DNA of 32,000 bases from Moraxella nasovis (lineage in GTDB: Bacteria > Pseudomonadota > Gammaproteobacteria > Pseudomonadales > Moraxellaceae). How positions within the stretch are numbered: position 1 is the stretch's first letter; every line of letters begins with the position of its first letter. The stretch spans positions 1,996,237 to 2,028,236 of the forward strand of contig NZ_CP089976.1 of the NCBI RefSeq assembly GCF_022701215.1. The letters run 5' to 3'. Below are positions 5,058 to 32,000 of this stretch, one piece after another. The position numbers were made by a program, and so were the translations under genes. The notes under the pieces are model-generated. The model searched no databases and had not been told where the DNA came from. It worked only from the letters and a program-made list of their open reading frames with translations.

Positions 5058-6266
5058 GTGGCAATTTTATCTATGCAGGATTTGGATTTATTAGGCAAGC
5101 GTGTGCTGATTCGTGAAGATTTGAATGTGCCGATTAAAGACGGCGTAATTACAAGTGATATACGTCTTAAAGCTGCTATTCCTACCGTTGAAGAAGCCTT
5201 GAAAAAAGGAGCAGCAGTTATTGTGGCATCGCATTTAGGTCGTCCAACTGAAGGGGAAAAGGAGCAAAAATACTCGCTTAAGCCTGTGGCAGATTATTTG
5301 GCAAAAAACTTAGATTACCCTGTGTCTTTTTCAAATGACTACCTAGAGCATGGCGTAGACGCTAAGGCAGGCGAGCTGATAGTACTAGAAAACGTACGTT
5401 TTAACCAAGGCGAAAAGAAAAACAGCGAAACACTATCTAAACAATATGCCGATTTGTGTGACGTTTTCGTGATGGACGCATTTGGCACGGCACACAGAGC
5501 CCAAGCATCAACCGAAGGGGTTATTCGTGCAGCTGCTCGTGACGGTAAGCCTGTGTGTGCTGGTAATCTTTTATCAACGGAACTATCAGCACTGGCTACC
5601 GCACTAAATCAGCCAAAGCCACCTGTGCTTGCCATTGTTGGTGGCTCAAAAGTATCTACCAAGCTTGATGTGTTATTAAGCCTAGCTAAGATATGCGATA
5701 GTATTGTTGTGGGCGGTGGTATTGCCAATACGTTTTTGGCAGCCCAAGGGGTGAATGTCGGTGCATCACTATATGAGCCTGACTTGATTGACACTGCTAA
5801 GGCTATCATGACGCAGACAAACATTTTATTACCAGATTATGTCGTTGTCGCTGATAAAGCCCAGATTGATTTTGATGACTTTTTAGGTTCACTTTCTAAG
5901 GCAGATGCAGTCGTTAAGTCTGTTACTGAAATAGGCGAAAATGATATGATTTTAGACATTGCCAAACAAAGTGCTGAAAAAATTGGCGATGCGATTAAAA
6001 ATGCCAAAACCATACTTTGGAATGGACCTGTGGGCGTCTTTGAAGTGGATAAATTTGGTATAGGTACACAGATTTTGTCTTTGGCAGTAAAAGACAGTGA
6101 TGCTTTTAGTATTGCAGGTGGTGGTGATACATTGGCAGCAATTGATAAATATGGCGTAGCAGATGATGTCAGTTATCTATCCACAGGCGGTGGGGCGTTT
6201 TTAGAGTTTGTTGAAGGTAAGACTTTGCCTGCCATTGCAGCATTAGAAGAGTTTGTTGCCAAATAA
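5058..6266 (+). CDS. pgk: Phosphoglycerate kinase
   Basis: [25 protein letters not shown]...SHLGRPTEG parallels the E. coli Pgk N-terminus. GTG start sits 7 nt after AAGGGTG. Typical length of 402 aa. Confidence 0.96.
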
Positions 6267-9719: not shown

Positions 9720-11138
9720 ATGGTAGGCAAAACCCTATACGATAAATTATGGCAAGACCATTTGGTCAAACAGCGTGATGATGGCTCGGCACTCATCTAT
9801 ATTGACCGCCATTTATTGCATGAAGTAACTAGCCCCCAAGCTTTTGAAGGCTTATCTTTGGCAGGGCGGACACCTTGGCGATTGTCTGCTAATATCGCAA
9901 CGCCTGACCATAACGTCCCCACTTCCACTTTTGAGCGTACACAAGGCATTAGCGGCATTAGCGATGACATCTCACGCATTCAAGTCAAAACGCTTGATGA
10001 CAACTGCAAAAATTTTAATGTCATGCAGTTTGGTATTAATGACGAACGCCAAGGCATTGTGCATGTGGTCGGGCCTGAGCAAGGGCTTGTTTTACCGGGT
10101 ATGACGGTGGTGTGCGGTGATAGTCATACTGCCACGCATGGGGCTTTGGGCTGTTTGGCACATGGTATTGGCACAAGTGAAGTGGAACACGTCTTGGCAA
10201 CAGGGTGCTTGATTGCCAAAAAAATGAAAAATATGCGTATCGTGGTTGATGGCAGACTTGCCAAAGGCGTAACGCCAAAAGACGTGGTGCTGGCGATTAT
10301 CGGTAACATTGGTACGGCTGGTGGTACAGGCTATGCCATTGAATTTGCAGGCGAAGTATTCAATGATATGTCTATTGAAGGGCGTATGACTGTTTGTAAT
10401 ATGGCGATTGAAGCTGGGGCAAGGGTGGGACTTGTGGCGGTGGACGATAAAACCATTGACTATGTCAAAGGTCGTCCTTATGCACCCACAGGCGAGGATT
10501 GGGAGTGTGCGGCTACTTATTGGCGGTCGTTGCATTCTGACGAAGGGGCTGTCTTTGATAAAGAGATTTGGCTTGATGGCAGTCAAATTGCACCGCAGGT
10601 ATCGTGGGGGACATCGCCTGAAATGGTGGTGGACATCACCCAATCTGTTCCGACTTTGCAGATGGCAAAAGATGAGACGCAAAAGGCAGATTGGCAACGT
10701 GCCTATGCTTATATGGGGCTGACAGCAGGTCAGTCATTAAGCGACATCAAGCTTGACCGTGTATTTATTGGGTCGTGTACCAATTCACGCATTGAAGATT
10801 TGCGAGCGGCGGCAAGCGTGATAAAAGGTCGCAAAGTAGCGGATACTATCAAAGAAGCGTTGGTGGTGGCAGGCTCTGGATTGGTTAAAGCCCAAGCCGA
10901 ACAAGAAGGTTTGGACAAAATCTTTAAAGAGGCAGGGTTTGAATGGCGGCAGCCGGGGTGTTCTATGTGCCTTGCGATGAATGCTGATAAACTTAAAGCA
11001 GGTGAGCATTGTGCCAGTACCAGTAACCGTAATTTTGAAGGTCGTCAAGGCAATGGTGGACGCACGCACCTTGTCAGTCCAGAAATGGCGGCAGCGGCAG
11101 CGATAGCAGGGCATTTTGTGGACGTGCGGACGTTTTGA
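9720..11138 (+). CDS. leuC: 3-isopropylmalate dehydratase large subunit
   Basis: Aconitase-family motifs are present: [33 protein letters not shown] and CSMCLAMN (Fe-S ligands). Length is 472 aa. Confidence 0.97.
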
Positions 11139-11146
11139 TTTTGACC

Positions 11147-11182
11147 AATGAACGCGCTAAGATAAACTAGTGCGTTCATTTT
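11147..11182 (+). terminator. Terminator-like hairpin directly after leuC
   Basis: AATGAACGC (11147-11155) pairs with GCGTTCATT (11172-11180) around a 16-nt loop, followed by TT. Confidence 0.5.
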
Positions 11183-11192
11183 GGAGAAAATT

Positions 11193-11379
11193 ATGCTGTT
11201 ATCAATTTTTGAGCAACATTAATCAAATGGTTCAGCATTTGGATAATGCCGTCAAAATACAATTGATTGAGCAGTTACAAAAAGATATTGCCAATAAACC
11301 ACCTGATGATTTATCAAAATTCACCCCAAGAAATGATTTGGTTGTGGGTAACTTTGATGATTTGGGAAATATCAGTTAG
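11193..11379 (+). pseudogene. Possible degenerate antitoxin gene of a VapBC-like pair
   Basis: A good SD and start (GGAGAAAATTATG, 11193) opens a 9-codon frame that stops. The long frame (from ATG 11227, ...IEQLQKDIANKPPDDLSKF...) has no Shine-Dalgarno and ends 16 nt before the PIN-like ORF. Assignment rests on position only. Confidence 0.3.
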
Positions 11380-11849: not shown

Positions 11850-12380
11850 ATGAATCTAACTGCCAACACCTACCTAGATGTCCGTAATCCCACCCAGCCC
11901 ACAGGCGAGATGATATTGACCTGTGCCGATATTGCCAATGAAAGCACATTATCTAATGACTATGTCGCCAATATTTGGGGCTATACAGGGGGTAATATCA
12001 GCCCAGAATTGATGTGGCAAAATGCCCCCAAAGACACCAAAAGTTTTGTCATCACGCTATTTGACCCTGACGCACCCACAGGCTCTGGCTTTTGGCATTG
12101 GAATGTGTTTAATATTCCTGCTGATTGGACGGCATTACCCAAAAATAAATCCAATGATTTTGGTGATGGTATTATTGAGCTTAAAAATGACGCAGGACTA
12201 ACTGGCTTTATTGGGGCATTTCCACCCAAAGGCGATAAACCACACCGCTATATTTTTACGCTATACGCCCTAAATGAAAAACTGGATTTAAACAATAGCA
12301 TTAGCCCTGCGGTATTGGGATTTAATTTAAATGGTAAAGTTTTGGCGACAGCTAAATTGACGGCTTATTATCATTGGTAA
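11850..12380 (+). CDS. YbhB/YbcL-family PEBP (Raf kinase inhibitor-like) protein
   Basis: GGNISPELMW..., TLFDPDAPTGSGFWHWNVFNIPA and PPKGDKPHRYIFTLYAL closely parallel E. coli YbhB. AAGGA lies 8 nt before the ATG. Confidence 0.88.
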   Translation: MNLTANTYLDVRNPTQPTGEMILTCADIANESTLSNDYVANIWGYTGGNISPELMWQNAPKDTKSFVITLFDPDAPTGSGFWHWNVFNIPADWTALPKNKSNDFGDGIIELKNDAGLTGFIGAFPPKGDKPHRYIFTLYALNEKLDLNNSISPAVLGFNLNGKVLATAKLTAYYHW

Positions 12381-12390
12381 TTATTGAACA

Positions 12391-12768
12391 ATGAAAGAAA
12401 ATAGCGATTTTTTAGACTTTTATAGAAATATCACATTTTCTGATAACTATGATGTTAATTCATTTATTGGTAAATGGATTGATGATGCGATTTGGTCGGA
12501 TGAAGAGTATATCAAATTAGAAAAATCGCTATTGACTATTCAAAAAGCATATCCCTATCCAACCGATATTCCAAGAGAAATTATCATATCACTTTATAGA
12601 ATTATTGAGTTGATGATGATACCAAATTGGTTAGATTTTGATGTTGAAAAATCCAATCTGAATGATGAGAGTGATATCTTTGATAGATTTGAGAGATTAA
12701 AATTGGTCATTTCTTATGTTTTGTCTGGCAATGATATTCAAGAAATAGGATTTGGTTATAATCCATAA
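12391..12768 (+). CDS. Hypothetical acidic protein (125 aa)
   Basis: Clean ORF 10 nt after the PEBP stop. AT-rich codon usage. No recognisable motif. Confidence 0.6.
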   Translation: MKENSDFLDFYRNITFSDNYDVNSFIGKWIDDAIWSDEEYIKLEKSLLTIQKAYPYPTDIPREIIISLYRIIELMMIPNWLDFDVEKSNLNDESDIFDRFERLKLVISYVLSGNDIQEIGFGYNP

Positions 12769-13479: not shown

Positions 13480-14122
13480 ATGAAAAACTTATTTTTATCA
13501 TCTTCTTTGTTTGATGTTGCAAAATTTTTGCCGAGTTTTTTAAGTGGTATTGACAAAAATAAGCAATTTAAAAGCGTGGCTTTTATTGATGTTGCCAGTC
13601 AAATAGAAGAGTATAAAGCCAATATTGACCGTGCCAAATGTGCTTTTGATGAGCTTGGTTTTTTGATTGAAATGATTGACTTTAACCAATCATCTGATGA
13701 CATCAAAAAATCCATTGTTTATTGCGATATGGTTTATGTTGCTGGTGGTAATACGCCTTATTTATTAGAGAAATTAAAAGCCAAAAATTTATTAGAGCAA
13801 TTAAAAGCCAAAAAGATTGATGTTTTTTTTAATTGAATGGATTGGACAAGGCAAACCCTATATCGGTGAGAGTGCAGGCAGTGCCATTTTGGCTCAGGAT
13901 ATTAAATATATTTTACCACTAGAAAATGAAGTAGAGCGATTTGATGATTTTGTTGGATTGGGTGTGATAGATTTTTATCCTTTGGTGCATTTTGGTGATA
14001 AACCATTTGATGAAGCTACCAAAACGATTTTTGATAATTATTCATCAAAAGATAAAATGATAGCATTAAACAATCGGCAAGCATTGATAATCTATGACAA
14101 TAAAATGTTAATTCCATCTTAA
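13480..14122 (+). pseudogene. S51 (peptidase E-like) serine peptidase gene split by a frameshift in a T8 tract
   Basis: ORF A (13480-13836) carries VYVAGGNTPYLL. ORF B (13817-14122, +1 frame) carries YIGESAGSAIL (GxSAG nucleophile elbow). The frames meet at the T8 run 13823-13830, and removing one T fuses them into a product of about 212 aa. Confidence 0.75.
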
Positions 14123-22571: not shown

Positions 22572-23456
22572 ATGTTAAAACCGATTTTAAAATGGGCTGG
22601 TGGCAAGAGTCAGCTGTTATCTCAAATCCAAAACCGCCTGCCAACTTATGTACAAACCCAAGATTTTTGTTTGGTTGAGCCATTTGTTGGTGGTGGGGCG
22701 GTAAGTTTTTGGGCGTTATCGCATTTTCCTAATCTAAAACGGCTGATTATTAATGACATCAATCACGATCTTATTAATGTCTATCGTGTTATTCGTCAAT
22801 CCGCTGACAGATTGATTGATGTGCTTTTTCATATCCAGCAAGAATATGATAATTTAACTGATTTAGAAAGCAAAAAGCCTTATTATTATGCCAAGCGAGA
22901 TTTATATAACTCTCGTAAGTCTGATAATATTACCCAAGCCGCTTTATTCATTTTTTTAAACAAAGCGGGCTTTAATGGTCTATATCGTGTCAATAAAAAT
23001 AATGAATTTAATGTGCCAATTGGCAGTTACAAAAAACCACAATTTTTAGACAAAGAGCTGATTTATCAATTGCAAAAATACCTAAAAAATGTGGAAATAT
23101 TAACAGGTGATTATGAGCAAATTTTGAATAAACTAGACAATACTCTACCTTGTTTATTTTATATTGATCCTCCCTATCGCCCGCTTAGTAATACATCAAA
23201 CTTTAATCATTATGCTCATCAAGAATTTGATGATAATGAACAGGTTCGTCTAGCACAATTTTGTCGTCAATTAGATAAATTAGGTTATCAATTTTTACTG
23301 AGTAATTCTGACCCCAAAAATAGCAATCCTAATGACAATTTTTTTGATGAACTGTATCAACAGTTTACCATCGAGAGAGTGATGGCGAAACGTGCAATCA
23401 ATGCCAAAGGCGATGGACGGTCGGCGATTAGCGAGATTTTAGTTTATAATTATTAG
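22572..23456 (+). CDS. Dam-family (alpha class) GATC N6-adenine DNA methyltransferase, DpnM / M.MboIA-like
   Basis: [21 protein letters not shown] (FxGxG) and a central IDPPY. It is the first gene of the three-gene cassette. Confidence 0.92.
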
Positions 23457-23464
23457 GAGTGTAT

Positions 23465-24352
23465 ATGAAAGATATTTATGATTCAGCACATTTTGACCTA
23501 CTCATAAGCACTTTAAAAGAAAAGGGCTTGATACAATATGATTATTTTGTAAATTGGGCAAAAGTTTTTGATAATATCACGCCGATTGAAAAAGAATTGA
23601 ATTTATTAAATACAGCAATTGGTAAGGATAATGTTGATGAAGTGCTATTTGATATTTTTAAAACTTATCCAAAAACTATTAAAGTCATTCCTATTTTATT
23701 GGCTATTCGTGATAAATCTATTGAAGTTTTGATAGATAGCTCAAATTTTATTTATAGAAATTTTAACTTTAATGATAAAAACATTGATGATGATAAAATT
23801 CATGGACTAATTGAGCTTCTGCTACAAAGTGGTTTTGTTGAATTGATTAAAAATAAACAAATAAAAAATTTGGTAGATTATTGTATTGGCGTAGAAGTAG
23901 GTCTAGATAGTAATGGACGTAAAAACCGTAGTGGTACATCTATGGAGATACTGGTGGAGTCTTTTGTTGCGTTATTCTGTCATAATCATAATTTAGAATA
24001 TCTCGTACAAGCCAATGCCAAAAAAATTGCGGACGCTTGGGGAATAGAAATACAAATTGATAAAACATCTCGTATTATAGATTTTGTTATAAAAAACGGA
24101 GAGAAATTATATTTTATTGAATGTAATTTTTATAAGGGCGGTGGCTCTAAGCTCAAATCAACCGCAACCGAATATATAGAAATGGCTCGTTTTTGGAAAA
24201 ACCAAGATATTGAATTTATTTGGGTAACAGACGGTGCAGGTTGGGCAGGAACACATAGACCACTAAGAGATTATTTTAATAAGGGTAATATTTTATTGAA
24301 TATACAGATGTTACAAGATGATTATTTAGCAAAAATAATTTTGGATAACTGA
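23465..24352 (+). CDS. Type II restriction endonuclease, DpnII/MboI family (GATC)
   Basis: IGVEVGLDSNGRKNRSGTSME, IDFVIKNGEKLYFIECNFYKGGGSKLKSTA and WVTDGAGW match the blocks I recall from R.DpnII. AGGAG lies 5 nt before ATG 23465. Confidence 0.88.
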   Translation: MKDIYDSAHFDLLISTLKEKGLIQYDYFVNWAKVFDNITPIEKELNLLNTAIGKDNVDEVLFDIFKTYPKTIKVIPILLAIRDKSIEVLIDSSNFIYRNFNFNDKNIDDDKIHGLIELLLQSGFVELIKNKQIKNLVDYCIGVEVGLDSNGRKNRSGTSMEILVESFVALFCHNHNLEYLVQANAKKIADAWGIEIQIDKTSRIIDFVIKNGEKLYFIECNFYKGGGSKLKSTATEYIEMARFWKNQDIEFIWVTDGAGWAGTHRPLRDYFNKGNILLNIQMLQDDYLAKIILDN

Positions 24353-25165
24353 ATGCTATATTTTCAATCTACCGATAAAAATTTTAATTTATATCAAGGC
24401 GATTGTATAAAAATCATGCCAACATTGCAGGCAAATAGCATTGATATGATCTTTGCCGATCCGCCTTATTTTTTATCTAATGATGGTTTGACAGTTAAAG
24501 ATGGTGTGATTCAATCGGTTAATAAAGGCAATTGGGATAAGTTTAGTACAGATGATGAAATTTATCGTTTTACTTATGAATGGTTAAATGAATCTCGGAG
24601 AATTTTAAAAGATAATGGCACAATTTGGATAAGTGGCACACATCATAATATTTTTATGTTAGGGCGTATTTTAGAGCAATTGGGTTTTAAGATATTAAAT
24701 ATGATTACTTGGGAGAAACCAAATCCGCCACCAAATTTCTCATGTCGTTATTTTACTTATTCTGCCGAGTGGATTATTTGGGCAAGAAAATATCCCAAGA
24801 TCCCACATTATTTCAATTATGAGTTAATGAAAAAACTCAATGCTAATAAGCAAGCCAAAGATGTTTGGCGACTGCCTGCGGTGAATAAATGGGAAAAACA
24901 ACAAGGCAGGCACCCAACTCAAAAACCACTAGGGTTGTTATCTCGGATTATTTTGGCCTCTACCCAAGAATATGATATTATTGTAGACCCATTCTCAGGT
25001 TCGGCAACCACAGGGATTGCTGGTGCAATTTTAAATAGAAAATTCATCGGTATTGAATCAAACGATGAATTTTTAGCACTATCTAAAAGGCGTTATATTG
25101 ACTTAACGCCCAACAACAAAACGTCATTAAAACAAAAAATCAGAGAGCAAATCAGTTTAATATGA
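24353..25165 (+). CDS. Second (beta class) N6-adenine DNA methyltransferase, DpnA / M.MboIC-like
   Basis: N-terminal FADPPY and C-terminal DPFSGSATTG (SAM-binding). The start directly abuts the endonuclease stop (TGAATG). Confidence 0.9.
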   Translation: MLYFQSTDKNFNLYQGDCIKIMPTLQANSIDMIFADPPYFLSNDGLTVKDGVIQSVNKGNWDKFSTDDEIYRFTYEWLNESRRILKDNGTIWISGTHHNIFMLGRILEQLGFKILNMITWEKPNPPPNFSCRYFTYSAEWIIWARKYPKIPHYFNYELMKKLNANKQAKDVWRLPAVNKWEKQQGRHPTQKPLGLLSRIILASTQEYDIIVDPFSGSATTGIAGAILNRKFIGIESNDEFLALSKRRYIDLTPNNKTSLKQKIREQISLI

Positions 25166-25412: not shown

Positions 25413-27935
25413 TTAATATTTCACACTTGCACCGATACTAAAATTACGTCCCATTTGTGGAGTGTACGGTATGTACGTTTCGTGGGCATAGATGGTATCA
25501 TTGAGTAGGTTGTTGCCTTGCAAAAATACCGAATATTCTAGGTTGTTTTTGTAAGTGTGATAATCTATCCCAAGATTTAGCAAGCGATGTCCTTGCGTTG
25601 CCTTAAAGTTGCGTTCGTGATGGCGGTCAGGCACTTTGTTTTGGGCAAAAACGTGGGTATATTCTAAACTGCCAGACCACTTATCATTAAAGTTAGCCAA
25701 AACTTTTGCACCAAGTCGCATGGGCGGTAGGCGTGGTGTATAGGTGTCTGGTTGAGATTTGTAGTTAAAGGTCTCTTCACCAGTCCAACGATTAGGCTCG
25801 TAACCGACAACCACATCGGGTAAATGATGCAGACGACCTTTGACATAATCGCCAAAAATCTCGCCATAATAGCGGTCGTTAAATTGATAGCCAATTTTAC
25901 CTTCTATGCCATAGAATTTGGCAGGGGCTTGATTGTAGCGATTAATGTGTAGCATTTGTGGGTGTTTGACGACTTCTGTGCCTAAGTGGTCGTTGACGGT
26001 TTCAAGGTAAATATAATTATCAAAATCATACAGATAACTGCCAAGTTGATAATTAAATTTATCGCCTTGATATTTAAATGACAGCTCGTAGTTATTGGTC
26101 TTTTCTTTGGTCAGATTGCGATTACCCGCCTCAAACGAATTGGTCGCCAAATGCGGTCCGTGCGTGTACAGCTCTTGGGCATTGGGTAGGCGTTCTTGGT
26201 GCGAGACGTTCAGCGACAGTGTATGATTAGGCAAAAACCGCCAATGCACACCGCCAGCATAAGATACAGCGGTTTTTTTGTGCGGTGCTGTGGCTTTTTT
26301 GGCTTCAATGGTGGCTTGTTCTAGCTCATCGCCTTTTAGGTGACTTCTGTCTTTCATGGTTTTTTCAATGAAATCTAGATCATAATCCATGCTGATTTTT
26401 TGATGTTCCACTCGTGTGCCAAAATCTAGCGTGACTTTATCAAAATCTAACTTCTCAATGCCAAAAATACTGCTATTTTTGGTGGTGTTCTCAGTAAGTA
26501 GTGGTTGCTCTCGCCATTCGTTAATCGGGTTTTTGGCACTGCTTTTTTGATTAGTGTGCTGCACACCCCACACGCCAGATAAATTACCACCAAAAGCAGG
26601 CTTGGGTGCAAGCGTGGCTTCTAGGCGAGCTGCCACTCCTTTATTTTTAAAGACATTGGTTGCAAAACTACCTTCTTTTTCGTTATGCTGATAATCCACA
26701 TAAGCAGCATCACCACGGATTTTTGAGATGGCTTGCCAAGGGGTGTTCTGCCATTCGCCACGCATATCAAAACGTTTAGTAGTCAAGTCAATCATCGGTG
26801 CACCACCACCTGTATGAAAATGTCCTTTGTGTTCGTTGTGGCAATCGGGGCGTGGGTTTAGGTAATTGATGTCTTTATCGGTACTCAGCTGTGGGTATTT
26901 TGCCAAATAGGGGTGGGTGTAGAGTTTGTCAAAAATGTAAGACGCTCCACAGCCTTCATATAGATGATTATGAGCAGGCAGACCATACTCATCGTGGCGG
27001 TGGCTAAACGCCCCCCCAAGATAGCCATTATCGCCAACCCAAGATACACCAATACTGGCAGATTTAGAATCTGCCCAGCTGTCTGGCAGCTTGTCAAAGC
27101 TTTTGTATTTGATTGAATTTTTGACTTCATGCAGACGAGCTTTTTCGGCTTCGTATTTGGCGTGGCTATTGGTGTATACGTAGTCATAGACACTATTGGA
27201 GTAGCGTAATTCGCCTTTTTTCCATTTGTCATAGTCGGCTTGTAGATTTTCTAAGTCATAAGGCACGTTGGCATAGGCTTTTAATTCATCAATGCTAGAA
27301 AACTGCTCTTGGCGATAACGTGGCGTGCGGTAGTTGTCTGCATTTTTGTGCAGGCCTTCAATATGTAGAACAAAATTATCGCCAATTGGACCAGTAAGCT
27401 GTGTGGTGAGAAGCTTTTCTTGATTACCTGTGTTAAAGCGTACGCTGGTCTCTGTGGTGAGCTGGTTGGGAATTTGGGTGGGGATTTTATTGTCAATGAC
27501 GTTCACCGCACCTGCTGAGTTGCCTGAGCTGTATTTTAGGGTGTTGACACCACGCACAATCTCAACTCTTCTTGCCAAAGGTGTATCAACGGTGATGGCA
27601 TGATCGGGCGATAAATTTGCCATATCAATAACATCAGCACCGTTTTGTAAAATCTTTAGTCGCTTGCCTTCTTGACCACGAATGATGGGGGCGGACGCAC
27701 CACCACCAAATTGGTTGGAGTGAATGCCAAGCTCGTCAGATAACGCATCGCCTAGCGTGGTGGCACGTTTTTTGAGTACGTCGTGACTTACTCGCTGGTC
27801 ACTGATGTTGGTTTTGCCTTTGACGTTGACGGTCAGCGTATCTAAGACGACATTGGGGTCGTCATTGGCATGAACGACACTCACTAAGGCTAAGCTTAAG
27901 CTAATGGCAAGGCTGGTAGGTTTAAATAGTTTCAT
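25413..27935 (-). CDS. TonB-dependent outer-membrane receptor, ZnuD-like (metal piracy type)
   Basis: Signal peptide MKLFKPTSLAISLSLALVSVVHA, TonB-box-like DTLTVNV, a plug domain, and a C-terminal beta-barrel ending ...FSIGASVKY. His/Cys-rich loops are AHNHLYEGCG and PDCHNEHKGHFHTGGG. ATG 27935 is chosen over the upstream extension in the ORF track. Confidence 0.85.
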   Translation of the reverse strand: MKLFKPTSLAISLSLALVSVVHANDDPNVVLDTLTVNVKGKTNISDQRVSHDVLKKRATTLGDALSDELGIHSNQFGGGASAPIIRGQEGKRLKILQNGADVIDMANLSPDHAITVDTPLARRVEIVRGVNTLKYSSGNSAGAVNVIDNKIPTQIPNQLTTETSVRFNTGNQEKLLTTQLTGPIGDNFVLHIEGLHKNADNYRTPRYRQEQFSSIDELKAYANVPYDLENLQADYDKWKKGELRYSNSVYDYVYTNSHAKYEAEKARLHEVKNSIKYKSFDKLPDSWADSKSASIGVSWVGDNGYLGGAFSHRHDEYGLPAHNHLYEGCGASYIFDKLYTHPYLAKYPQLSTDKDINYLNPRPDCHNEHKGHFHTGGGAPMIDLTTKRFDMRGEWQNTPWQAISKIRGDAAYVDYQHNEKEGSFATNVFKNKGVAARLEATLAPKPAFGGNLSGVWGVQHTNQKSSAKNPINEWREQPLLTENTTKNSSIFGIEKLDFDKVTLDFGTRVEHQKISMDYDLDFIEKTMKDRSHLKGDELEQATIEAKKATAPHKKTAVSYAGGVHWRFLPNHTLSLNVSHQERLPNAQELYTHGPHLATNSFEAGNRNLTKEKTNNYELSFKYQGDKFNYQLGSYLYDFDNYIYLETVNDHLGTEVVKHPQMLHINRYNQAPAKFYGIEGKIGYQFNDRYYGEIFGDYVKGRLHHLPDVVVGYEPNRWTGEETFNYKSQPDTYTPRLPPMRLGAKVLANFNDKWSGSLEYTHVFAQNKVPDRHHERNFKATQGHRLLNLGIDYHTYKNNLEYSVFLQGNNLLNDTIYAHETYIPYTPQMGRNFSIGASVKY

Positions 27936-27965
27936 GGCATTTACACAGGTGGTTAACATTAAAAG

Positions 27966-27996
27966 TATATTATAACATAATAATAACATGATGCAA
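27966..27996 (-). promoter_or_regulatory. Candidate promoter of the receptor gene with a Zur-box-like operator
   Basis: The minus strand reads TTGCAT (27996-27991), 16 nt, then TATAAT (27974-27969). ATGTTATAATATA (27978-27966) matches the left half and centre of the gammaproteobacterial Zur box GAAATGTTATAnTATAACATTTC. Additional ATGTTA repeats flank it. Confidence 0.4.
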
Positions 27997-28345
27997 TAAT
28001 ATTTCACTATATTAAGCAAGTATTGCTGGTTGCACTATATTGATAGCTGTATTAATAGTAGTGCAAGCTGTTGCAAATAAACAGGTATGACGCTATCTTA
28101 AGGGGGTGTGATTTTAAAAAAAAGACAAAAATTGTAAATTTTTTTTAAGTTTTGCACCATATTTTTCATGGTTACCTTAATTACCAAACCAAAAATTACC
28201 AAACTAAAGGTGTTCTTATTTTGCTAAGTTTGGATAAAAATTTAGATTTCATTCAGATTGGCTGTAATCAGCTTAAGGTGCTTAGCAATTGGTGTGGGAT
28301 TTACGGCTGGTTTAATACAGCCCCTTATTTATGGCATGGTGTTTT

Positions 28346-28573
28346 ATGCTAAACCAAGATAAAGATAAAATCTTAAATATGATTGACAAAGAAATAAATA
28401 GCAGTTATGTTAATTATCTAAGTAAACAACAGATGAAGGCACTCTTTGAAGGCTTTCAAAAAGACCAATTAACTGATGATGATAAAAAAGACATTGCCAA
28501 CCATATCTTAGCTAATTATCTTGATGATATGCATGAGACAGAAAGACTGATAGATGTCTTATTAAATGAATGA
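28346..28573 (+). CDS. Hypothetical acidic helical protein (75 aa), possible orphan immunity-type gene
   Basis: ATG 28346 overlaps the stop of a possible upstream 43-codon ORF (ATGCTAA). AT-rich. No motif recognised. Confidence 0.5.
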   Translation: MLNQDKDKILNMIDKEINSSYVNYLSKQQMKALFEGFQKDQLTDDDKKDIANHILANYLDDMHETERLIDVLLNE

Positions 28574-28729: not shown

Positions 28730-28972
28730 ATGTTTGAATTTATTGCAGGTATCTTTTCATATCTTGGCTCTGATATAGAAAAAACCAAATCAATAAAAGT
28801 GCAATTATTGATTTCATTATTTTTTGGTTTTTGTATTTTTATTGTCATATGTGTTAAAGAATTTTTCATTAACTCTGATATAAAGCTGATCGCTTTTTCG
28901 CTCATATTATCGCTTTTGGTTTCAATATTTTTCTTTATTTGTTTTTTGATTTCTAATTTATTCAAAAAATAA
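28730..28972 (+). CDS. Small polytopic membrane protein (80 aa), possible orphan bacteriocin-immunity gene
   Basis: Two to three hydrophobic segments (LLISLFFGFCIFIVICV, LIAFSLILSLLVSIFFFICFLI). It has the same orientation as all other island genes. A competing antisense ORF (28681-28965) exists, so the call is tentative. Confidence 0.4.
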   Translation: MFEFIAGIFSYLGSDIEKTKSIKVQLLISLFFGFCIFIVICVKEFFINSDIKLIAFSLILSLLVSIFFFICFLISNLFKK

Positions 28973-29037: not shown

Positions 29038-29124
29038 ATGAAAAAACTCGTTTTATACTTATCTTGCGGATTTGTACTATCCGCCCACACCCACTTACTG
29101 CCCCAACCAAAGATAATATCCTAA
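29038..29124 (+). CDS. Micro-ORF (28 aa) MKKLVLYLSCGFVLSAHTHLLPQPKIIS; signal-peptide-like or small hydrophobic peptide
   Basis: ATG start. The C-terminal AHTHLLPQPKIIS part lies in the conserved module and is identical in the paralogous micro-ORF at 30983-31072. The N-terminal halves differ in nucleotides, but both are MKK plus a hydrophobic stretch. Confidence 0.35.
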   Translation: MKKLVLYLSCGFVLSAHTHLLPQPKIIS

Positions 29125-29177
29125 CAACTAATAACTGTCTTTAAAATAACCAACCAACCAAATCTTTATCACACCTA

Positions 29178-29207
29178 TTGACAAAGTACAAGTGTTCTTA
29201 GTAATAT
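29178..29207 (+). promoter_or_regulatory. Cassette promoter, copy 1
   Basis: TTGACA (29178-29183), 18 nt, then TAATAT (29202-29207). It is identical in all three copies. Confidence 0.65.
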
Positions 29208-29211
29208 CAAT

Positions 29212-29292
29212 GATAACTGCTCCAAGATGATAATCATTCCACCTATCATCACCTTGGACAGTTATCGGCTATCAGTTTGACTGATAGTTTTT
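29212..29292 (+). promoter_or_regulatory. Structured leader, copy 1: a long hairpin containing a Fur-box-like core, then a terminator-like hairpin with a U-tract
   Basis: Hairpin 1 (29212-29266) pairs GATAACTG/CAGTTATC, TCCAAG/CTTGGA and ATGATA/TATCAT, about 20 bp in total. Hairpin 2 (29269-29287) pairs CTATCAGT-ttg-ACTGATAG and is followed by T5. ATGATAATCATT lies at 29227-29238. Confidence 0.6.
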
Positions 29293-29322
29293 CATAACAT
29301 CAATTTAGTTAAGGAAAACTTT

Positions 29323-29409
29323 ATGAAAAAGCTATCAATCCTAGCACTAACAATAAGTGCTACCGTAGCCACTGCTCCTGCATTTGCAAAAGACAGCAAC
29401 CAATTATAA
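29323..29409 (+). CDS. uORF encoding only a Sec-type signal peptide: MKKLSILALTISATVATAPAFA/KDSNQL (28 aa)
   Basis: This is the best Shine-Dalgarno of the cassette (AAGGA 7 nt before the ATG). It shows the canonical n/h/c regions with an AFA cleavage motif, then a stop 6 codons later. It is conserved in all three copies. Confidence 0.55.
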   Translation: MKKLSILALTISATVATAPAFAKDSNQL

Positions 29410-29436
29410 CACAGCTATCCCAACCACGAAGCAGAT

Positions 29437-29703
29437 TTGTCTTTTGCATTTGATGATAGTCAAAACTTGCAAGCGGTTACCATGACTGATAGCCAAATGC
29501 AAGAGACACAAGGGGCTTGGATTGGTAATGCCTTTGGCGGCTTAATGGGAGGTGTTGGCGGTCATTATGGCTATATGGCGAGTGCTGTGGCTAGCGGCAC
29601 CTATAATAGAAACGCACATCTTGCAGCGATTGGCACAGGTGCAGTTGTTGGCGGTATTAATGGATATGCAAGTACAACTGGCAAAAATATCAAGATTCGT
29701 TAA
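29437..29703 (+). CDS. Bacteriocin/microcin precursor 1: GA-type double-glycine leader plus a 61-aa Gly/Ala-rich peptide
   Basis: Leader (M)SFAFDDSQNLQAVTMTDSQMQETQGA, then WIGNAFGGLMGGVGGHYGYMASAVASG...GAVVGGINGYA (colicin V / class II microcin-like composition). The start is uncertain (TTG 29437 or ATG 29482). Confidence 0.7.
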   Translation: MSFAFDDSQNLQAVTMTDSQMQETQGAWIGNAFGGLMGGVGGHYGYMASAVASGTYNRNAHLAAIGTGAVVGGINGYASTTGKNIKIR

Positions 29704-29759: not shown

Positions 29760-30032
29760 ATGATAATTATTTATATTGTGGCAACTTTGGGATTATTTAT
29801 TGGTTGGATTAAAAATACCTACCTGTTTAAAGGTAAGTTGTGGCTAGATAGGATATTTCTTTTAATATCAACTTCATTGCTAATATGGTGTTGTGTAAGT
29901 ATTACAAAATATGTCAATCATCTTAGCGATAATTTGGCTTTTATTCATTTGGCTTGTTATTTTGGATATCTTTTATTTTTGACTGTGGTTTTTTATAAAT
30001 TGGTAAAGCTTTTTGATAAGAAATTTTCATGA
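29760..30032 (+). CDS. Putative immunity protein 1 (90 aa, about 3 TM segments)
   Basis: It lies immediately downstream of bacteriocin 1. Hydrophobic segments: IIIYIVATLGLFIGWI, IFLLISTSLLIWCCVSI, LACYFGYLLFLTVVFY. Confidence 0.65.
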   Translation: MIIIYIVATLGLFIGWIKNTYLFKGKLWLDRIFLLISTSLLIWCCVSITKYVNHLSDNLAFIHLACYFGYLLFLTVVFYKLVKLFDKKFS

Positions 30033-30091
30033 AAATATCCTTATTACTTTTACCTTTTATAACAACCATCGCCACGCCGACCTACCCCTAA
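30029..30091 (+). CDS. Micro-ORF (20 aa) MKISLLLLPFITTIATPTYP
   Basis: The ATG overlaps the immunity-1 stop (ATGA). It is positionally equivalent to the micro-ORFs at 29038 and 30983. Confidence 0.25.
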   Translation: MKISLLLLPFITTIATPTYP

Positions 30092-30165
30092 CGGCTGATG
30101 ATATTTTGGCGGATAAAAATCGTTTTAAATAAAATAATTAACCAAACAAATCTTTACCATACTTA

Positions 30166-30195
30166 TTGACAAAGTACAAGTGTTCTTAGTAATAT
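30166..30195 (+). promoter_or_regulatory. Cassette promoter, copy 2
   Basis: TTGACA (30166-30171), 18 nt, then TAATAT (30190-30195). Confidence 0.65.
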
Positions 30196-30199
30196 CAAT

Positions 30200-30281
30200 G
30201 ATAACTGCTCCAAGATGATAATCATTCAACCTATCATCACCTTGGATAGTTATCGGCTATCAGTTTTGATTGATAGTTTTT
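30200..30281 (+). promoter_or_regulatory. Structured leader, copy 2
   Basis: It forms the same two hairpins. Stem differences from copy 1 are C-to-T changes giving G.U pairs (TAGTTATC, ATTGATAG). ATGATAATCATT lies at 30215-30226 and a T5 run at 30277-30281. Confidence 0.6.
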
Positions 30282-30306
30282 CACAAAGTCAATTAAGGAA
30301 AACTCT

Positions 30307-30387
30307 ATGAAAAAGTTATCAATCCTAGCACTAACAATAAGTGCTACCGTAGCCACTACTCCTGCATTTGCAAAAGATAGCGACTAA
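30307..30387 (+). CDS. uORF encoding only a signal peptide: MKKLSILALTISATVATTPAFA/KDSD (26 aa)
   Basis: It has the same Shine-Dalgarno and signal peptide as copy 1. The stop lies 13 nt upstream of the ATG of toxin 2. Confidence 0.55.
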   Translation: MKKLSILALTISATVATTPAFAKDSD

Positions 30388-30400
30388 TTATAGCACTGCC

Positions 30401-30667
30401 ATGACGGATAGCCAAATGCAGGAAACACAAGGGGCAAGATTTCCAAAATTTATTAGCAATGTAAGAGTGGATGGTCCAGATAAAGGATTTCGACAACATA
30501 GCAATGGCAGAATATTTCAAATAAGGTATGGCAATACCCCAAAAACTAGAACGCCTGTATTTAGGTTAGATCCCCATGACAACCCATCTCCAACCAAATT
30601 GCATATGCACATTGCACCAGATATCAATGCACATAGACCTTGGAATGCACCTTGGAAAAAATTTTAG
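30401..30667 (+). CDS. Toxin precursor 2: MTDSQMQETQGA leader plus a 76-aa basic, His-containing domain of unknown fold
   Basis: The leader is identical to copy 1. The mature part is RFPKFISNVRVDGPDKGFRQHSNGRIFQIRYGN...FRLDPHDNPSPTKLHMHIAPDINAHRPWNAPWKKF, which is not Gly-rich or hydrophobic. An alternative TTG start lies at 30368. Confidence 0.65.
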   Translation: MTDSQMQETQGARFPKFISNVRVDGPDKGFRQHSNGRIFQIRYGNTPKTRTPVFRLDPHDNPSPTKLHMHIAPDINAHRPWNAPWKKF

Positions 30668-30676
30668 GTACTATAA

Positions 30677-30937
30677 ATGAAATATGATAATTTTATCAAT
30701 AGTTTGAATGATTATTTGCATGGTCGTATTGATGGGAGATTATTATTAAATGCTTGGCAGGACTGCCCAGAAGAATTAAAACCCATTTACTATCAATTAT
30801 TTCATTTGATTGGCGATGAAGACATACGAAAAAAGGACGTGGATTACAAAAATTTTCAACTATCCTTGGTTAACAATGTAATTGGATTATTAAAAGCAGG
30901 TGATATTGAAAAATTACAAGGTATCAGCTTAATATAG
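30677..30937 (+). CDS. Putative immunity protein 2 (86 aa, soluble, acidic)
   Basis: It starts 9 nt after the toxin-2 stop. It has no signal peptide or TM segment. Its size and position resemble immunity proteins of enzymatic bacteriocins. Confidence 0.6.
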   Translation: MKYDNFINSLNDYLHGRIDGRLLLNAWQDCPEELKPIYYQLFHLIGDEDIRKKDVDYKNFQLSLVNNVIGLLKAGDIEKLQGISLI

Positions 30938-30982: not shown

Positions 30983-31072
30983 GTGAAAAAATCGTTTTTA
31001 TCTTTTTTAGTGTTAGGTTTTATAACCACCGCCCACACCCACTTACTGCCCCAACCAAAGATAATATCCTAA
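30983..31072 (+). CDS. Micro-ORF (29 aa) (M)KKSFLSFLVLGFITTAHTHLLPQPKIIS
   Basis: GTG start. The C-terminal 13 residues are identical to the 29038 micro-ORF. Confidence 0.3.
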   Translation: MKKSFLSFLVLGFITTAHTHLLPQPKIIS

Positions 31073-31142
31073 CAAATAATAACTGTCTTTAAAATAATTA
31101 AAAAAATAAAATAATTAACCAAATAAATCTTTATCACACCTA

Positions 31143-31172
31143 TTGACAAAGTACAAGTGTTCTTAGTAATAT
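31143..31172 (+). promoter_or_regulatory. Cassette promoter, copy 3
   Basis: TTGACA (31143-31148), 18 nt, then TAATAT (31167-31172). Confidence 0.65.
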
Positions 31173-31176
31173 CAAT

Positions 31177-31258
31177 GATAACTGCTCCAAGATGATAATC
31201 ATTCCACCTATCATCACCTTGGGTAGTTATCGGCTATCAGTTTTGACTGATAGTTTTT
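31177..31258 (+). promoter_or_regulatory. Structured leader, copy 3
   Basis: It forms the same two hairpins. CTTGGGTAGTTATC replaces CTTGGACAGTTATC, giving two wobble-compatible changes. ATGATAATCATT lies at 31192-31203 and a T5 run at 31254-31258. Confidence 0.6.
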
Positions 31259-31283
31259 CACAAAGTCAATTAAGGAAAACTCT

Positions 31284-31370
31284 ATGAAAAAGTTATCAAT
31301 CCTAGCACTAACAATAAGTGCTACCGTAGCCACTGCTTCTGCATTTGCAAAAAACAGCAACCAATTATAA
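31284..31370 (+). CDS. uORF encoding only a signal peptide: MKKLSILALTISATVATASAFA/KNSNQL (28 aa)
   Basis: Same architecture as copies 1 and 2. Confidence 0.55.
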   Translation: MKKLSILALTISATVATASAFAKNSNQL

Positions 31371-31401
31371 CACAGCTATCCCAACCACCCAAGAAGTAGA
31401 T

Positions 31402-31608
31402 TTGTCTTTTGCTTTTGACGATAGTCAAAACTTGCAAGCGGTTGACATGACTGATGATGAGATGAAAGAGACGGAAGGGGCTTTTGTTCCTATTGTGCTT
31501 AATTTAGCTGGACGTTTTATTACTAGCCAAGTTGCAAAACACCATTTAACCAATGTAGGCTTGGTCTATGGTACTTATACTTGGGGCAAAAGCCAAGGCA
31601 AAAAATAA
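31402..31608 (+). CDS. Bacteriocin precursor 3: GA-type leader plus a 41-aa cationic peptide
   Basis: Leader (M)SFAFDDSQNLQAVDMTDDEMKETEGA, then FVPIVLNLAGRFITSQVAKHHLTNVGLVYGTYTWGKSQGKK. The start is uncertain (TTG 31402 or ATG 31447). Confidence 0.65.
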   Translation: MSFAFDDSQNLQAVDMTDDEMKETEGAFVPIVLNLAGRFITSQVAKHHLTNVGLVYGTYTWGKSQGKK

Positions 31609-31706: not shown

Positions 31707-31979
31707 ATGAAAAAATGTCCAAATTGCCATAAACATTGCATTACAATTTCTGAATTTTCAGGTGTATGCCCAAATTGTCATACAGAACTTAAAACTTCTC
31801 ATGTTTTTTCCATGTTAATCATAATAATATTGTTGCTTATTATAGCTATTAGTGGAGTTTTAGGAAATTTCTACATATCTACATTTGCCCTACTAGCCAT
31901 TCTTATATACAAACTATTTAGTTATCAAATAGAAATTTTGCTATTTCCTTTACTAATTAAAAAATCCAATCTCTTATGA
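31707..31979 (+). CDS. Putative immunity protein 3 (90 aa): N-terminal CxxC...CxxC ribbon plus 2 TM segments
   Basis: CPNCHKHC...CPNCH is followed by the hydrophobic segments MLIIIILLLIIAISGVL and ISTFALLAILIY. Confidence 0.6.
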   Translation: MKKCPNCHKHCITISEFSGVCPNCHTELKTSHVFSMLIIIILLLIIAISGVLGNFYISTFALLAILIYKLFSYQIEILLFPLLIKKSNLL

Positions 31980-32000
31980 TGAAAAAAAATTATCTTATTC
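31976..32000 (+). CDS. Start of a further small ORF (MMKKNYLI...), 3'-partial at the window edge
   Basis: The ATG overlaps the immunity-3 stop (ATGA), the same arrangement as at 30029. Confidence 0.2.

Follow-up and report, generated by a model that had tools for sequence, protein, structure and literature searches.

Class II microcins are made with a cytoplasmic leader. Their type I secretion is completed in one step, in the course of which a peptidase-containing ABC transporter (PCAT) cuts this leader. Polymorphic toxin and bacteriocin loci, e.g. the pneumococcal blp 'cheater' loci and the orphan modules of the CDI and Rhs systems, hold many broken toxin genes together with intact immunity genes. 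The upstream open reading frames SecM, VemP and MifM encode 95-170 residues and carry a conserved C-terminal arrest motif, which stalls the ribosome with the signal already outside the tunnel. The microcins of Acinetobacter, such as MccAB1 of A. baumannii, rely on a classical PCAT type I system (PMC13188072). In the Fap system of Pseudomonas a periplasmic C39 peptidase, FapD, is combined with an outer-membrane barrel, FapF (Rouse et al. 2017, PMC5557850); that paper left open what FapD cleaves. We have analyzed a stretch of 32,000 nucleotides of Moraxella nasovis (the window), in which three successive cassettes each comprise a short open reading frame (sORF) for a Sec-type signal peptide, a bacteriocin-like open reading frame (ORF) and a gene for a small membrane protein. 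The original prediction on this sequence considered the sORF a separate regulatory element, i.e. an upstream open reading frame (uORF). Comparison with other Moraxella species leads to a different reading: the sORFs are likely the severed 5' ends of the bacteriocin precursor genes themselves, which are frameshifted and probably no longer yield an exported product.

Short reading frames in M. nasovis and fused precursors in its relatives

The three sORFs are near-identical, count 26-28 codons and are located, with their start signals and the site of a shared insertion, at the following positions.

29323-29409 (+): sORF 1, Sec signal peptide (residues 1-22), K, five out-of-frame codons and TAA
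30307-30387 (+): sORF 2, signal peptide and KDSD; the earlier stop results from a CAA-to-TAA change, which leaves the +1 frame with a synonymous codon (ACC to ACT)
31284-31370 (+): sORF 3, signal peptide and KNSNQL
29311-29315, 30295-30299 and 31272-31276 (+): AAGGA Shine-Dalgarno of the precursor gene, duplex energy -6.1 kcal/mol
29389-29392 (AAA G, copy 1), 30373-30376 (AAA G, copy 2) and 31350-31353 (AAA A, copy 3) (+): 1-nt insertion site, directly after AAA (K23)

The sORFs were thus present where they had been predicted, with the n/h/c layout of a Sec-type signal peptide and the junction between AFA and K visible. The translation of copy 1 is MKKLSILALTISATVATAPAFAKDSNQL, followed by the stop codon, whereas copy 2 ends in TTPAFAKDSD and copy 3 in ASAFAKNSNQL, the pattern shared by the copies being MKKLSILALTISATVAT(A/T)(P/S)AFAK. 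Read by eye, the peptide shows the features of a signal peptidase I substrate, namely MKK, then LSILALTISATVATA, then P-A-F-A with cleavage before K (n/h/c layout and A-x-A), and this layout is likewise kept throughout the alignment of the family described below. The sORFs are not chance ORFs, because they are located within a 276-nt direct repeat (three copies, at 29139-29414, 30127-30402 and 31104-31379). The order inside each of these modules is a promoter-like site, a two-hairpin region of ~86 nt, AAGGA and the ATG of the 26-28 codon ORF.

In related species the same signal peptide is the N-terminus of a longer protein. The precursors of this family consist of four parts in one frame: the signal peptide, a variable linker rich in Thr, Ser, Pro and Gln, a double-glycine-type leader with G-A as its last residues, and a variable core. 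The conserved leader reads ADLSFAFDDxxNLQAxxMTxxEMQETEGA. The fused state was found in Moraxella bovoculi, oculi, caprae, lacunata, nonliquefaciens and lincolnii, and in several metagenome-assembled genomes (MAGs). More specifically, in a complete M. bovoculi genome (locus L001) MKKLSILALTATVAIAPAFA is in frame with the linker, DLSFAFDD..EMQETEGA and the core at 10802-11260 and 11885-12409, and two neighbouring genes in this locus read MKKLSILALTATVAIAPAFA-ETAVYQTIPSTT..QEA-DLSFAFDDIENLQATDMTLAEMQETEGA-core. When the 73-residue N-terminus from L001 was used as query, 59 proteins were retrieved, about 40 of which cover 96-100% of it, i.e. they run from the signal peptide through G-A in one protein; these originate from M. 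bovoculi, ovis, caprae, cuniculi and uncultured Moraxella MAGs. In the reverse direction, the signal-peptide consensus of the family matched each cassette of the window (tblastn, E = 2e-7 to 2e-9).

A scan of GTDB, in which each species is represented by one genome, yielded 17 loci, which belong to nine or more species of Moraxella, M. nasovis not being among them. The catalogue derived from these loci comprises 46 cassettes outside the window, after removal of the overlap between L009 and L010. The signal peptide is fused in frame in 27 of the 46, it is present but interrupted at scattered sites in eight, and the remaining 11 have no signal peptide, so that some 40% of the cassettes in relatives are likewise defective. 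A break at the insertion site of M. nasovis occurs in none of the 46. A comparison with homologous loci had been named in the original prediction as a touchstone for a separate element in front of each bacteriocin gene; it yielded in-frame fusion to a full-length precursor, and that view is thus not supported.

The interrupted cassettes are varied. Some have linker nonsense codons (M. nonliquefaciens, M. lincolnii) and others frameshifts in the signal peptide or leader (M. lacunata, a MAG), and in M. bovoculi there is an A7 run just after the ATG. The last case concerns the first cassette of that species (L001 9884-9893; L002 ~7784), where the run is found in ATGAAAAAAATT and the intact copies have A6; the tract could be phase-variable or a sign of decay.

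The leader itself has the hallmarks of the double-glycine type (..NLQAxxMTxxEMQETEG-A) and three invariant positions (M at -12, M at -7 and G at -2); the Thr at position -4 is atypical for such leaders. Met-Thr at -12/-11 is invariant in 14/14 aligned precursors, and some truncated cassettes (copy 2 of the window, L017 11529) start exactly at that Met. An internal start may account for this, or recombination that broke the DNA within the conserved leader. Among the cassettes without a signal peptide, one recurrent type (..ITKLSTKQADLSFAFDD..) is common to several species (L010 ~340-450, L016 ~5620-5730, L008 ~10740-10830, L009 18525). In this type the promoter joins almost directly to the linker end, and in L016 the start of the hairpin sequence forms an ATG, from which a near-leaderless mRNA could result. 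Another signal-less form, beginning at MTDKQMEETQGA, is present in L017.

Lesions of the M. nasovis cassettes and the readings they allow

In all three copies in M. nasovis the codon next to the signal-peptidase site is followed by one surplus nucleotide: they read GCA AAA [G/A] ACA GCA.. versus GCA GAA - ACG ACG.. in the relatives. The insertion was located by an unguided DNA alignment of the three copies with five relatives, in which every relative has a single-column gap. Copy 1 shows an additional 4-nt deletion relative to copy 3, between 29427 and 29428 and ahead of DLSF, which restores the original frame only after the out-of-frame stretch has made the TAA. In copy 2 a 69-nt deletion has taken out the linker and the DLSFAFDD..NLQAV segment, which is invariant in the family alignment. 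The +1-frame peptide of copy 3 (K-TATNYNTAIPTTQEV-DLSFAFDD..) aligns with the family end to end after a single base is skipped. The sequence hallmarks of a pseudogene, a frame disrupted relative to intact orthologues plus further independent lesions, are present, with the 1-nt insertion in three copies, the 4-nt deletion and the 69-nt deletion. The shortened core of copy 1 was set aside as an extra lesion, its 25-residue internal deletion being in-frame with both ends kept.

Leader and core of copy 1 stand in the frame of the sORF, separated from it by a single TAA, and those of copies 2 and 3 in the +1 frame, exactly as had been described. The conclusion once drawn from this, that a non-conserved frame indicates a separate element, fails, because the copy-to-copy differences are due to identifiable indels, i.e. 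the shared 1-nt insertion and the 4-nt deletion in copy 1.

The distribution of the ribosome binding sites is in line with a severed gene start. At each sORF ATG the duplex energy with the anti-Shine-Dalgarno sequence is -6.1 kcal/mol, versus +0.6 to -2.4 at all candidate bacteriocin starts and -0.7 to -3.7 at the immunity starts; a value of -6 is reached at only 6.5% of the window positions. The sORF thus indeed owns the only strong Shine-Dalgarno of the cassette, as predicted. This is to be expected if that ATG is the true start of the precursor gene; AAGGAAAA is near-invariant ahead of the intact precursors in relatives.

The tails that follow the signal peptide (KDSNQL, KDSD and KNSNQL) differ among the copies, and the DNA alignment identifies them as an out-of-frame reading of the linker. 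A released hexapeptide had been proposed on their account, and a stub that delivers a periplasmic or secreted signalling peptide of 4-6 residues would have an intact signal peptide with A-x-A and a strong Shine-Dalgarno to its credit. We consider such a product scarcely credible, as one tail was shortened by a nonsense change and none of the relatives conserves a short ORF of this kind. A nascent peptide that senses Sec or the signal recognition particle (SRP) fares no better: neither a conserved tail nor an arrest motif is present. Moreover, the ribosomal exit tunnel holds about 30-40 residues, and a stub of 26-28 residues cannot report co-translational engagement of SRP or Sec because it is still within the tunnel.

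In the reading that we prefer, each sORF would be the original gene start, with promoter, structured leader, Shine-Dalgarno, ATG and signal peptide, cut off by the 1-nt insertion after the signal-peptidase site. The insertion would have arisen once, and gene conversion between the near-identical 5' modules would have spread it to all three copies. Ribosomes that load at the strong Shine-Dalgarno would make only the stub. Any product of the leader-core ORFs would remain in the cytoplasm, out of reach of the periplasmic peptidase, and since these ORFs lack a Shine-Dalgarno as well as a signal peptide the cassettes are most likely non-producing. The promoter would still drive the intact immunity genes, making M. 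nasovis an 'immune non-producer'. The extra lesions in copies 1 and 2 fit such decay, as do the defective cassettes of the relatives. The earlier idea that the sORF is the fossil of a Sec-dependent ancestor was therefore essentially right, except that the ancestor is the bacteriocin precursor itself and not a captured foreign gene.

The ORFs downstream of the sORFs are listed below, in the order of the window.

29410-29517 (+): copy 1 linker remnant and double-glycine-type leader (HSYPNHEA-DLSFAFDDSQNLQAVTMTDSQMQETQGA)
29518-29703 (+): copy 1 core, Gly/Ala-rich and microcin-like, homologous to the M. oculi L003 core, with the 25-residue internal in-frame deletion (tblastn)
29760-30032 (+): immunity-like small membrane protein 1, intact, 54-58% identical to ORFs after homologous cores in L003 and L016, absent from the protein collection
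30401-30667 (+): copy 2 leader remnant (only MTDSQMQETQGA) and 76-residue core
30677-30937 (+): immunity-like protein 2 (LU293_09770), 59% identical to an L003 ORF
31345-31608 (+): copy 3 in the +1 frame, linker (TATNYNTAIPTTQEV), leader (DLSFAFDDSQNLQAVDMTDDEMKETEGA) and full-length core, annotated as LU293_09775 from an internal TTG
31707-31979 (+): immunity-like protein 3, zinc-ribbon-like N-terminus and membrane segment, 36-52% identical to ORFs after homologous cores in L001, L002, L008 and L016

The 87-aa ORF at 31345-31608 is 100% identical to LU293_09775 and has homologues in other Moraxella. An example of a predicted mature core of M. nasovis is FVPIVLNLAGRF..KSQGKK. The consecutive locus tags LU293_09765, 09770 and 09775 cover only the first bacteriocin ORF, the second immunity-like ORF and the third bacteriocin ORF; GenBank has no annotation for immunity-like ORFs 1 and 3 nor for the bacteriocin ORF of copy 2 (30368-30667). 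Scans of the three leader-core ORFs and the immunity ORFs against Pfam and NCBIfam gave no meaningful match. Across species the small membrane-protein ORF after each precursor co-varies with the core type, which is consistent with a putative role in immunity.

The spacing of 13-31 nt that had been reported between the sORF stop and the bacteriocin ORF depends on the start that is chosen. It does not hold for the annotated ORF of copy 3 and the equivalent unannotated ORF of copy 2, which start from a TTG inside the sORF (31345 and 30368, respectively). Candidate starts further down, none with a Shine-Dalgarno, lie 14-77 nt from the sORF stop. Such nearby TTG or ATG codons are what a co-opted uORF would need: the stub would load ribosomes, and re-initiation would give a signal-less precursor (and/or the immunity protein), exported otherwise, e.g. 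by a PCAT elsewhere in the genome. The signal-less cassettes of other species (the ITKLSTKQADLSFAFDD type of L008, L010 and L016 and the MTDKQMEETQGA form of L017) and the invariant Met at leader position -12 can be cited in favour. On the other hand, translational coupling or re-initiation, as originally suggested, found no positive support; stop-to-start distance and frame differ in all three copies; the tail and stop of the stub are not conserved; neither in the window nor in the loci of relatives was a PCAT or ABC gene seen; and the periplasmic peptidase would be inaccessible to a product that lacks the signal peptide. As indels in a gene whose fused form is the rule in relatives fully explain the arrangement, co-option appears improbable.

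Several observations weigh against the severed-gene reading. The +1 frame is open through the entire precursor in copies 2 and 3, and of the four substitutions in the overlap two leave the peptide of that frame unchanged. In addition, two coding sequences (CDS) after copy 3, M. nasovis still encodes a C39 peptidase that appears intact (P0098, 210 aa), including its signal peptide and the catalytic SCGAS. Intact machinery beside three dead substrates is slightly awkward, and would imply a recent inactivation, other substrates elsewhere in the genome or a bypass of the frameshift. Finally, the collections hold one M. nasovis genome, the sequence was read up to position 32000, and two metagenome scans gave no match to the nasovis-type signal peptide and junction.

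A bypass could take the form of programmed recoding or an ON-OFF switch, in which a +1 slip of tRNA-Lys from AAA to AAG or AAA, or slippage on the A-run, yields a low and regulated amount of full-length precursor; the AAA-R insertion would then keep toxin output low with immunity on. Apart from the open +1 frame and the intact peptidase gene, the local sequence lends itself to this, as the extra base follows AAA in all copies and the +1 codon is again Lys (AAG, AAG and AAA), with which tRNA-Lys can re-pair. The site nevertheless lacks the features of a programmed +1 frameshift of the prfB type (slow or stop codon, stimulator, conserved site): the next 0-frame codon (GAC, GAT or AAC) is neither a stop nor rare, no Shine-Dalgarno-like stimulator lies upstream, and no relative has a shift at the nasovis site, the fused ORF being the rule. 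Moreover, A4 and A6 are short for slippage, and no single recoding event rescues all copies, because copy 1 needs UAA readthrough and copies 2 and 3 a +1 shift. We therefore regard recoding as very unlikely.

The extra base may also be unreal. Were it an error of sequencing or assembly within the short A-run (AAAA-G; A6 in copy 3), copies 2 and 3 would be ordinary intact precursors, whereas the 4-nt deletion would leave copy 1 defective even so. Indeed, dropping one base gives a full-length, family-typical precursor in copies 2 and 3, the three near-identical contexts would allow a systematic error to recur, and the export machinery is apparently intact. A gene elsewhere in the window, for a Peptidase_S51 protein, is split into two ORFs (13480-13836 and 13817-14122, plus strand) at a T8 run (13825-13832). 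The split could be genuine, which would make it a pseudogene, or a homopolymer error, and so bears on the quality of the assembly. However, homopolymer errors usually concern longer runs than the A4 of copies 1 and 2, the other long ORFs of the window are intact, broken cassettes are common in independently sequenced relatives, and copy 1 is broken regardless. An artefact is thus unlikely, if less so than co-option or recoding, and severed precursor genes remain the explanation that we favour.

The arrangement would then represent neither a new kind of regulatory uORF nor a secreted hexapeptide, but a gene cut in two by one base. The lesson is that a 'perfect signal peptide and nothing else' should be compared with homologues first. 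With all its toxins severed and its immunity genes intact, M. nasovis would be a candidate natural 'immune non-producer'.

Structured 5' leader, array ends and predicted export route

The upstream part of each module and the genes at the array ends were analyzed as well, with the following features.

29178-29207, 30166-30195 and 31143-31172 (+): promoter-like site TTGACA, 18 nt spacer, TAATAT (consensus scan), identical in the three copies
29211-29295 (+): structured 5' leader of cassette 1, a long hairpin and then a second hairpin with U-run (covariance model R1, 89 bits)
30199-30284 (+): structured 5' leader of cassette 2 (R1, 89.9 bits)
31176-31261 (+): structured 5' leader of cassette 3 (R1, 92.8 bits)
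30029-30132 (+): decayed 5' fragment of a FapF-like gene (..HADLPLTADDILADKNRFK and stop) at a cassette junction; tblastn with the L001 outer-membrane protein matches 30073-30129
L001 13004-14600, also in L002-L004, L006, L008, L010, L012-L014, L017 and L018: gene pair for the barrel and the C39 peptidase

TTGACA-like boxes occur at the same relative place in relatives, and in every 'type A' cassette two adjacent hairpins of together ~86 nt, the second with a U-run, are located between the promoter and the Shine-Dalgarno. Single-sequence folds gave z = -2.4 to -9.3 for 22 of 23 leaders (-5.9 to -7.3 for those of the window), the leader of M. oculi being at -0.2. The covariance model R1, built from ten copies with a hand-specified structure, found 26 plus-strand copies over the window and L001-L015, directly upstream of the cassette ATG wherever coordinates were compared. 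In the resulting alignment, which is fitted to the model so that the numbers lean its way, 92.8% of the cells pair and 11 of 26 pairs have compensatory changes; these values were reached by none of 500 shuffles, and slid controls were 16-57% paired. When RNAalifold was applied to the raw MAFFT alignment, hairpin 2 alone was recovered, owing to indels in hairpin 1. On the sense strand G.U pairs are frequent, which speaks for an RNA structure rather than a DNA palindrome. The leader appears to be uncatalogued, as a scan of the whole window against Rfam at gathering thresholds returned no family. It could possibly act as an attenuator, a stability element or a small RNA. Two other interpretations were rejected: a Fur box (TGATAATCATT in the nasovis leader), a likeness that is probably coincidental, as this sequence makes up the loop and inner stem of hairpin 1 and relatives do not conserve it; and an integron attC-like hairpin, for which the R'/R'' consensus is unmatched, each cassette having its own promoter and the G.U pairs pointing to RNA.

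In 13 loci the array ends with an outer-membrane protein of 300-312 residues, followed by a C39 peptidase of about 195-210 residues. The peptidases that were inspected have a Sec signal peptide of their own, except P0073, the annotated N-terminus of which is short, and the catalytic SCGAS motif is present in all. The peptidase matches Pfam Peptidase_C39 (3e-22) and NCBIfam C39_FapD (1.5e-18, under the equivalog cut-off). For the outer-membrane protein the best family match is NCBIfam FapF (3.7e-7), which is weak, with 29 bits versus a cut-off of 700. FapF chains are also the sole matches of the barrel by sequence among solved structures (E = 4e-5 with a single sequence, 7e-5 with a profile, ~25 bits). 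Judged by these scores the relationship to FapF would be a distant one, far under the family cut-offs. No ABC transporter, PCAT or membrane-fusion gene was found in the window or within 10 kb of the M. bovoculi L001 array, and none of the genes of the loci are homologous to FapA, FapB, FapC or FapE. The window and the arrays of relatives are syntenic. In M. nasovis the GenBank accessions run from the first bacteriocin ORF (UNU73333) via the second immunity-like ORF (UNU73334) and the third bacteriocin ORF (UNU73335) over one further CDS to the C39 peptidase (UNU73337), which places copy 3 as the last cassette and the peptidase just past the window.

Apart from the fragment listed above, the window contains more degraded FapF-like fragments at 29038-29124 and 30983-31072; repeats D3 and D6 of the window point to all of these fragments. 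Similar 5' fragments are found between the cassettes of L001 (11663-11779), L002, L005, L008, L009/L010 and L016. Present at every cassette junction, these fragments are scars of cassette insertion upstream of the barrel gene, and thereby display the mode of array growth.

Considering this architecture together with the established knowledge of Sec, C39 and Fap (PMC5557850), a four-step export route can be inferred. The intact precursor would cross the inner membrane through Sec, after which signal peptidase would remove the signal peptide between AFA and E or K. Next, the stand-alone, Sec-exported C39 peptidase would cleave after G-A in the periplasm, and the mature core would exit through the adjacent FapF-like outer-membrane barrel. 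The small membrane protein encoded after each precursor would confer immunity. A literature search for bacteriocins that use Sec and a periplasmic C39/FapF-type route returned only the classical type I microcins and the Fap amyloid system. On balance, and by a modest margin of confidence, we take the family to represent an undescribed class of Gram-negative bacteriocins with serial export signals (a Sec signal peptide and then a double-glycine leader) and a two-step, FapD-/FapF-like secretion instead of type I ABC transport, the cassettes being under an uncatalogued structured 5' leader RNA. If true, the FapD class of periplasmic C39 peptidases gains a clear, sequence-defined substrate motif, and there is a second export route for microcin-like peptides. 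It would also explain that these loci are missed by microcin-mining tools that require a PCAT transporter. Many Moraxella species, both commensals and pathogens of livestock and humans, carry such polymorphic arrays of Sec plus double-glycine bacteriocin-like precursors.

Further observations relate to the surroundings of the cassettes. An 80-aa membrane protein encoded at 28730-28972 (+) is 50-56% identical to ORFs within the cassette arrays of L008-L010 and L017 and has no precursor ahead; judging from these matches it is probably an orphan immunity gene. Two more ORFs upstream of cassette 1, at 28331-28573 (+) and 28152-28352 (+), are likewise without a bacteriocin precursor ahead, and a core that has been lost may have left its tail in the region 28152-28352. 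The genes for a D12 methylase, a DpnII endonuclease and a second N6/N4 methylase, which form a DpnII-type restriction-modification system (22572-25165, plus strand), adjoin a gene for a TonB-dependent receptor (25413-28019, minus strand). An immunity protein of the Imm41 family is encoded at 12391-12768 (+).

Comparison with known systems

The stub of M. nasovis resembles SecM, VemP and MifM in being encoded by an upstream ORF with a signal or membrane-targeting sequence ahead of another gene. However, it counts 26-28 residues, has no conserved tail and has no homologue that exists as a separate ORF. In the blp, CDI and Rhs-type loci, as in the Moraxella arrays, many toxin genes are truncated or frameshifted beside intact immunity genes, 5' homology regions allow recombination and scars of neighbouring genes are found at the module junctions. 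M. nasovis differs from these loci in that every module keeps its promoter, leader, Shine-Dalgarno and signal peptide, and in that all three share one lesion.

The Moraxella family has much in common with the class II microcins (colicin V, McbC of M. catarrhalis and MccAB1 of A. baumannii). Both have small, Gly/Ala-rich cores and multi-cassette arrays, a leader with G-A at its end, Glu or Gln at -8 and a hydrophobic residue at both -7 and -12, a C39 cysteine peptidase in the locus and a small gene directly downstream, which encodes immunity in the microcins and putatively so in Moraxella. In contrast to the microcins, the Moraxella precursors have a Sec signal peptide and a linker before the leader, and Thr rather than a hydrophobic residue at -4, whereas the C39 peptidase is a stand-alone protein with a predicted periplasmic location and the locus has neither an ABC transporter nor a membrane-fusion gene.

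It is in these last respects that the family, as far as can be read from its sequences, resembles the Fap system, with Sec-exported substrates, a Sec-exported C39 peptidase acting in the periplasm and an adjacent barrel that may be related to FapF. Nevertheless, the substrates are polymorphic bacteriocin-like peptides with paired immunity genes and not FapB/FapC amyloid subunits, the barrel is at most distantly related to FapF, and homologues of the other Fap proteins are lacking. Moreover, a cleavage motif of the GG type is clear in the Moraxella substrates, whereas the Fap paper left the target of FapD open. The family would thus bring two known kinds together, a double-glycine bacteriocin being combined with a predicted Fap-type secretion.

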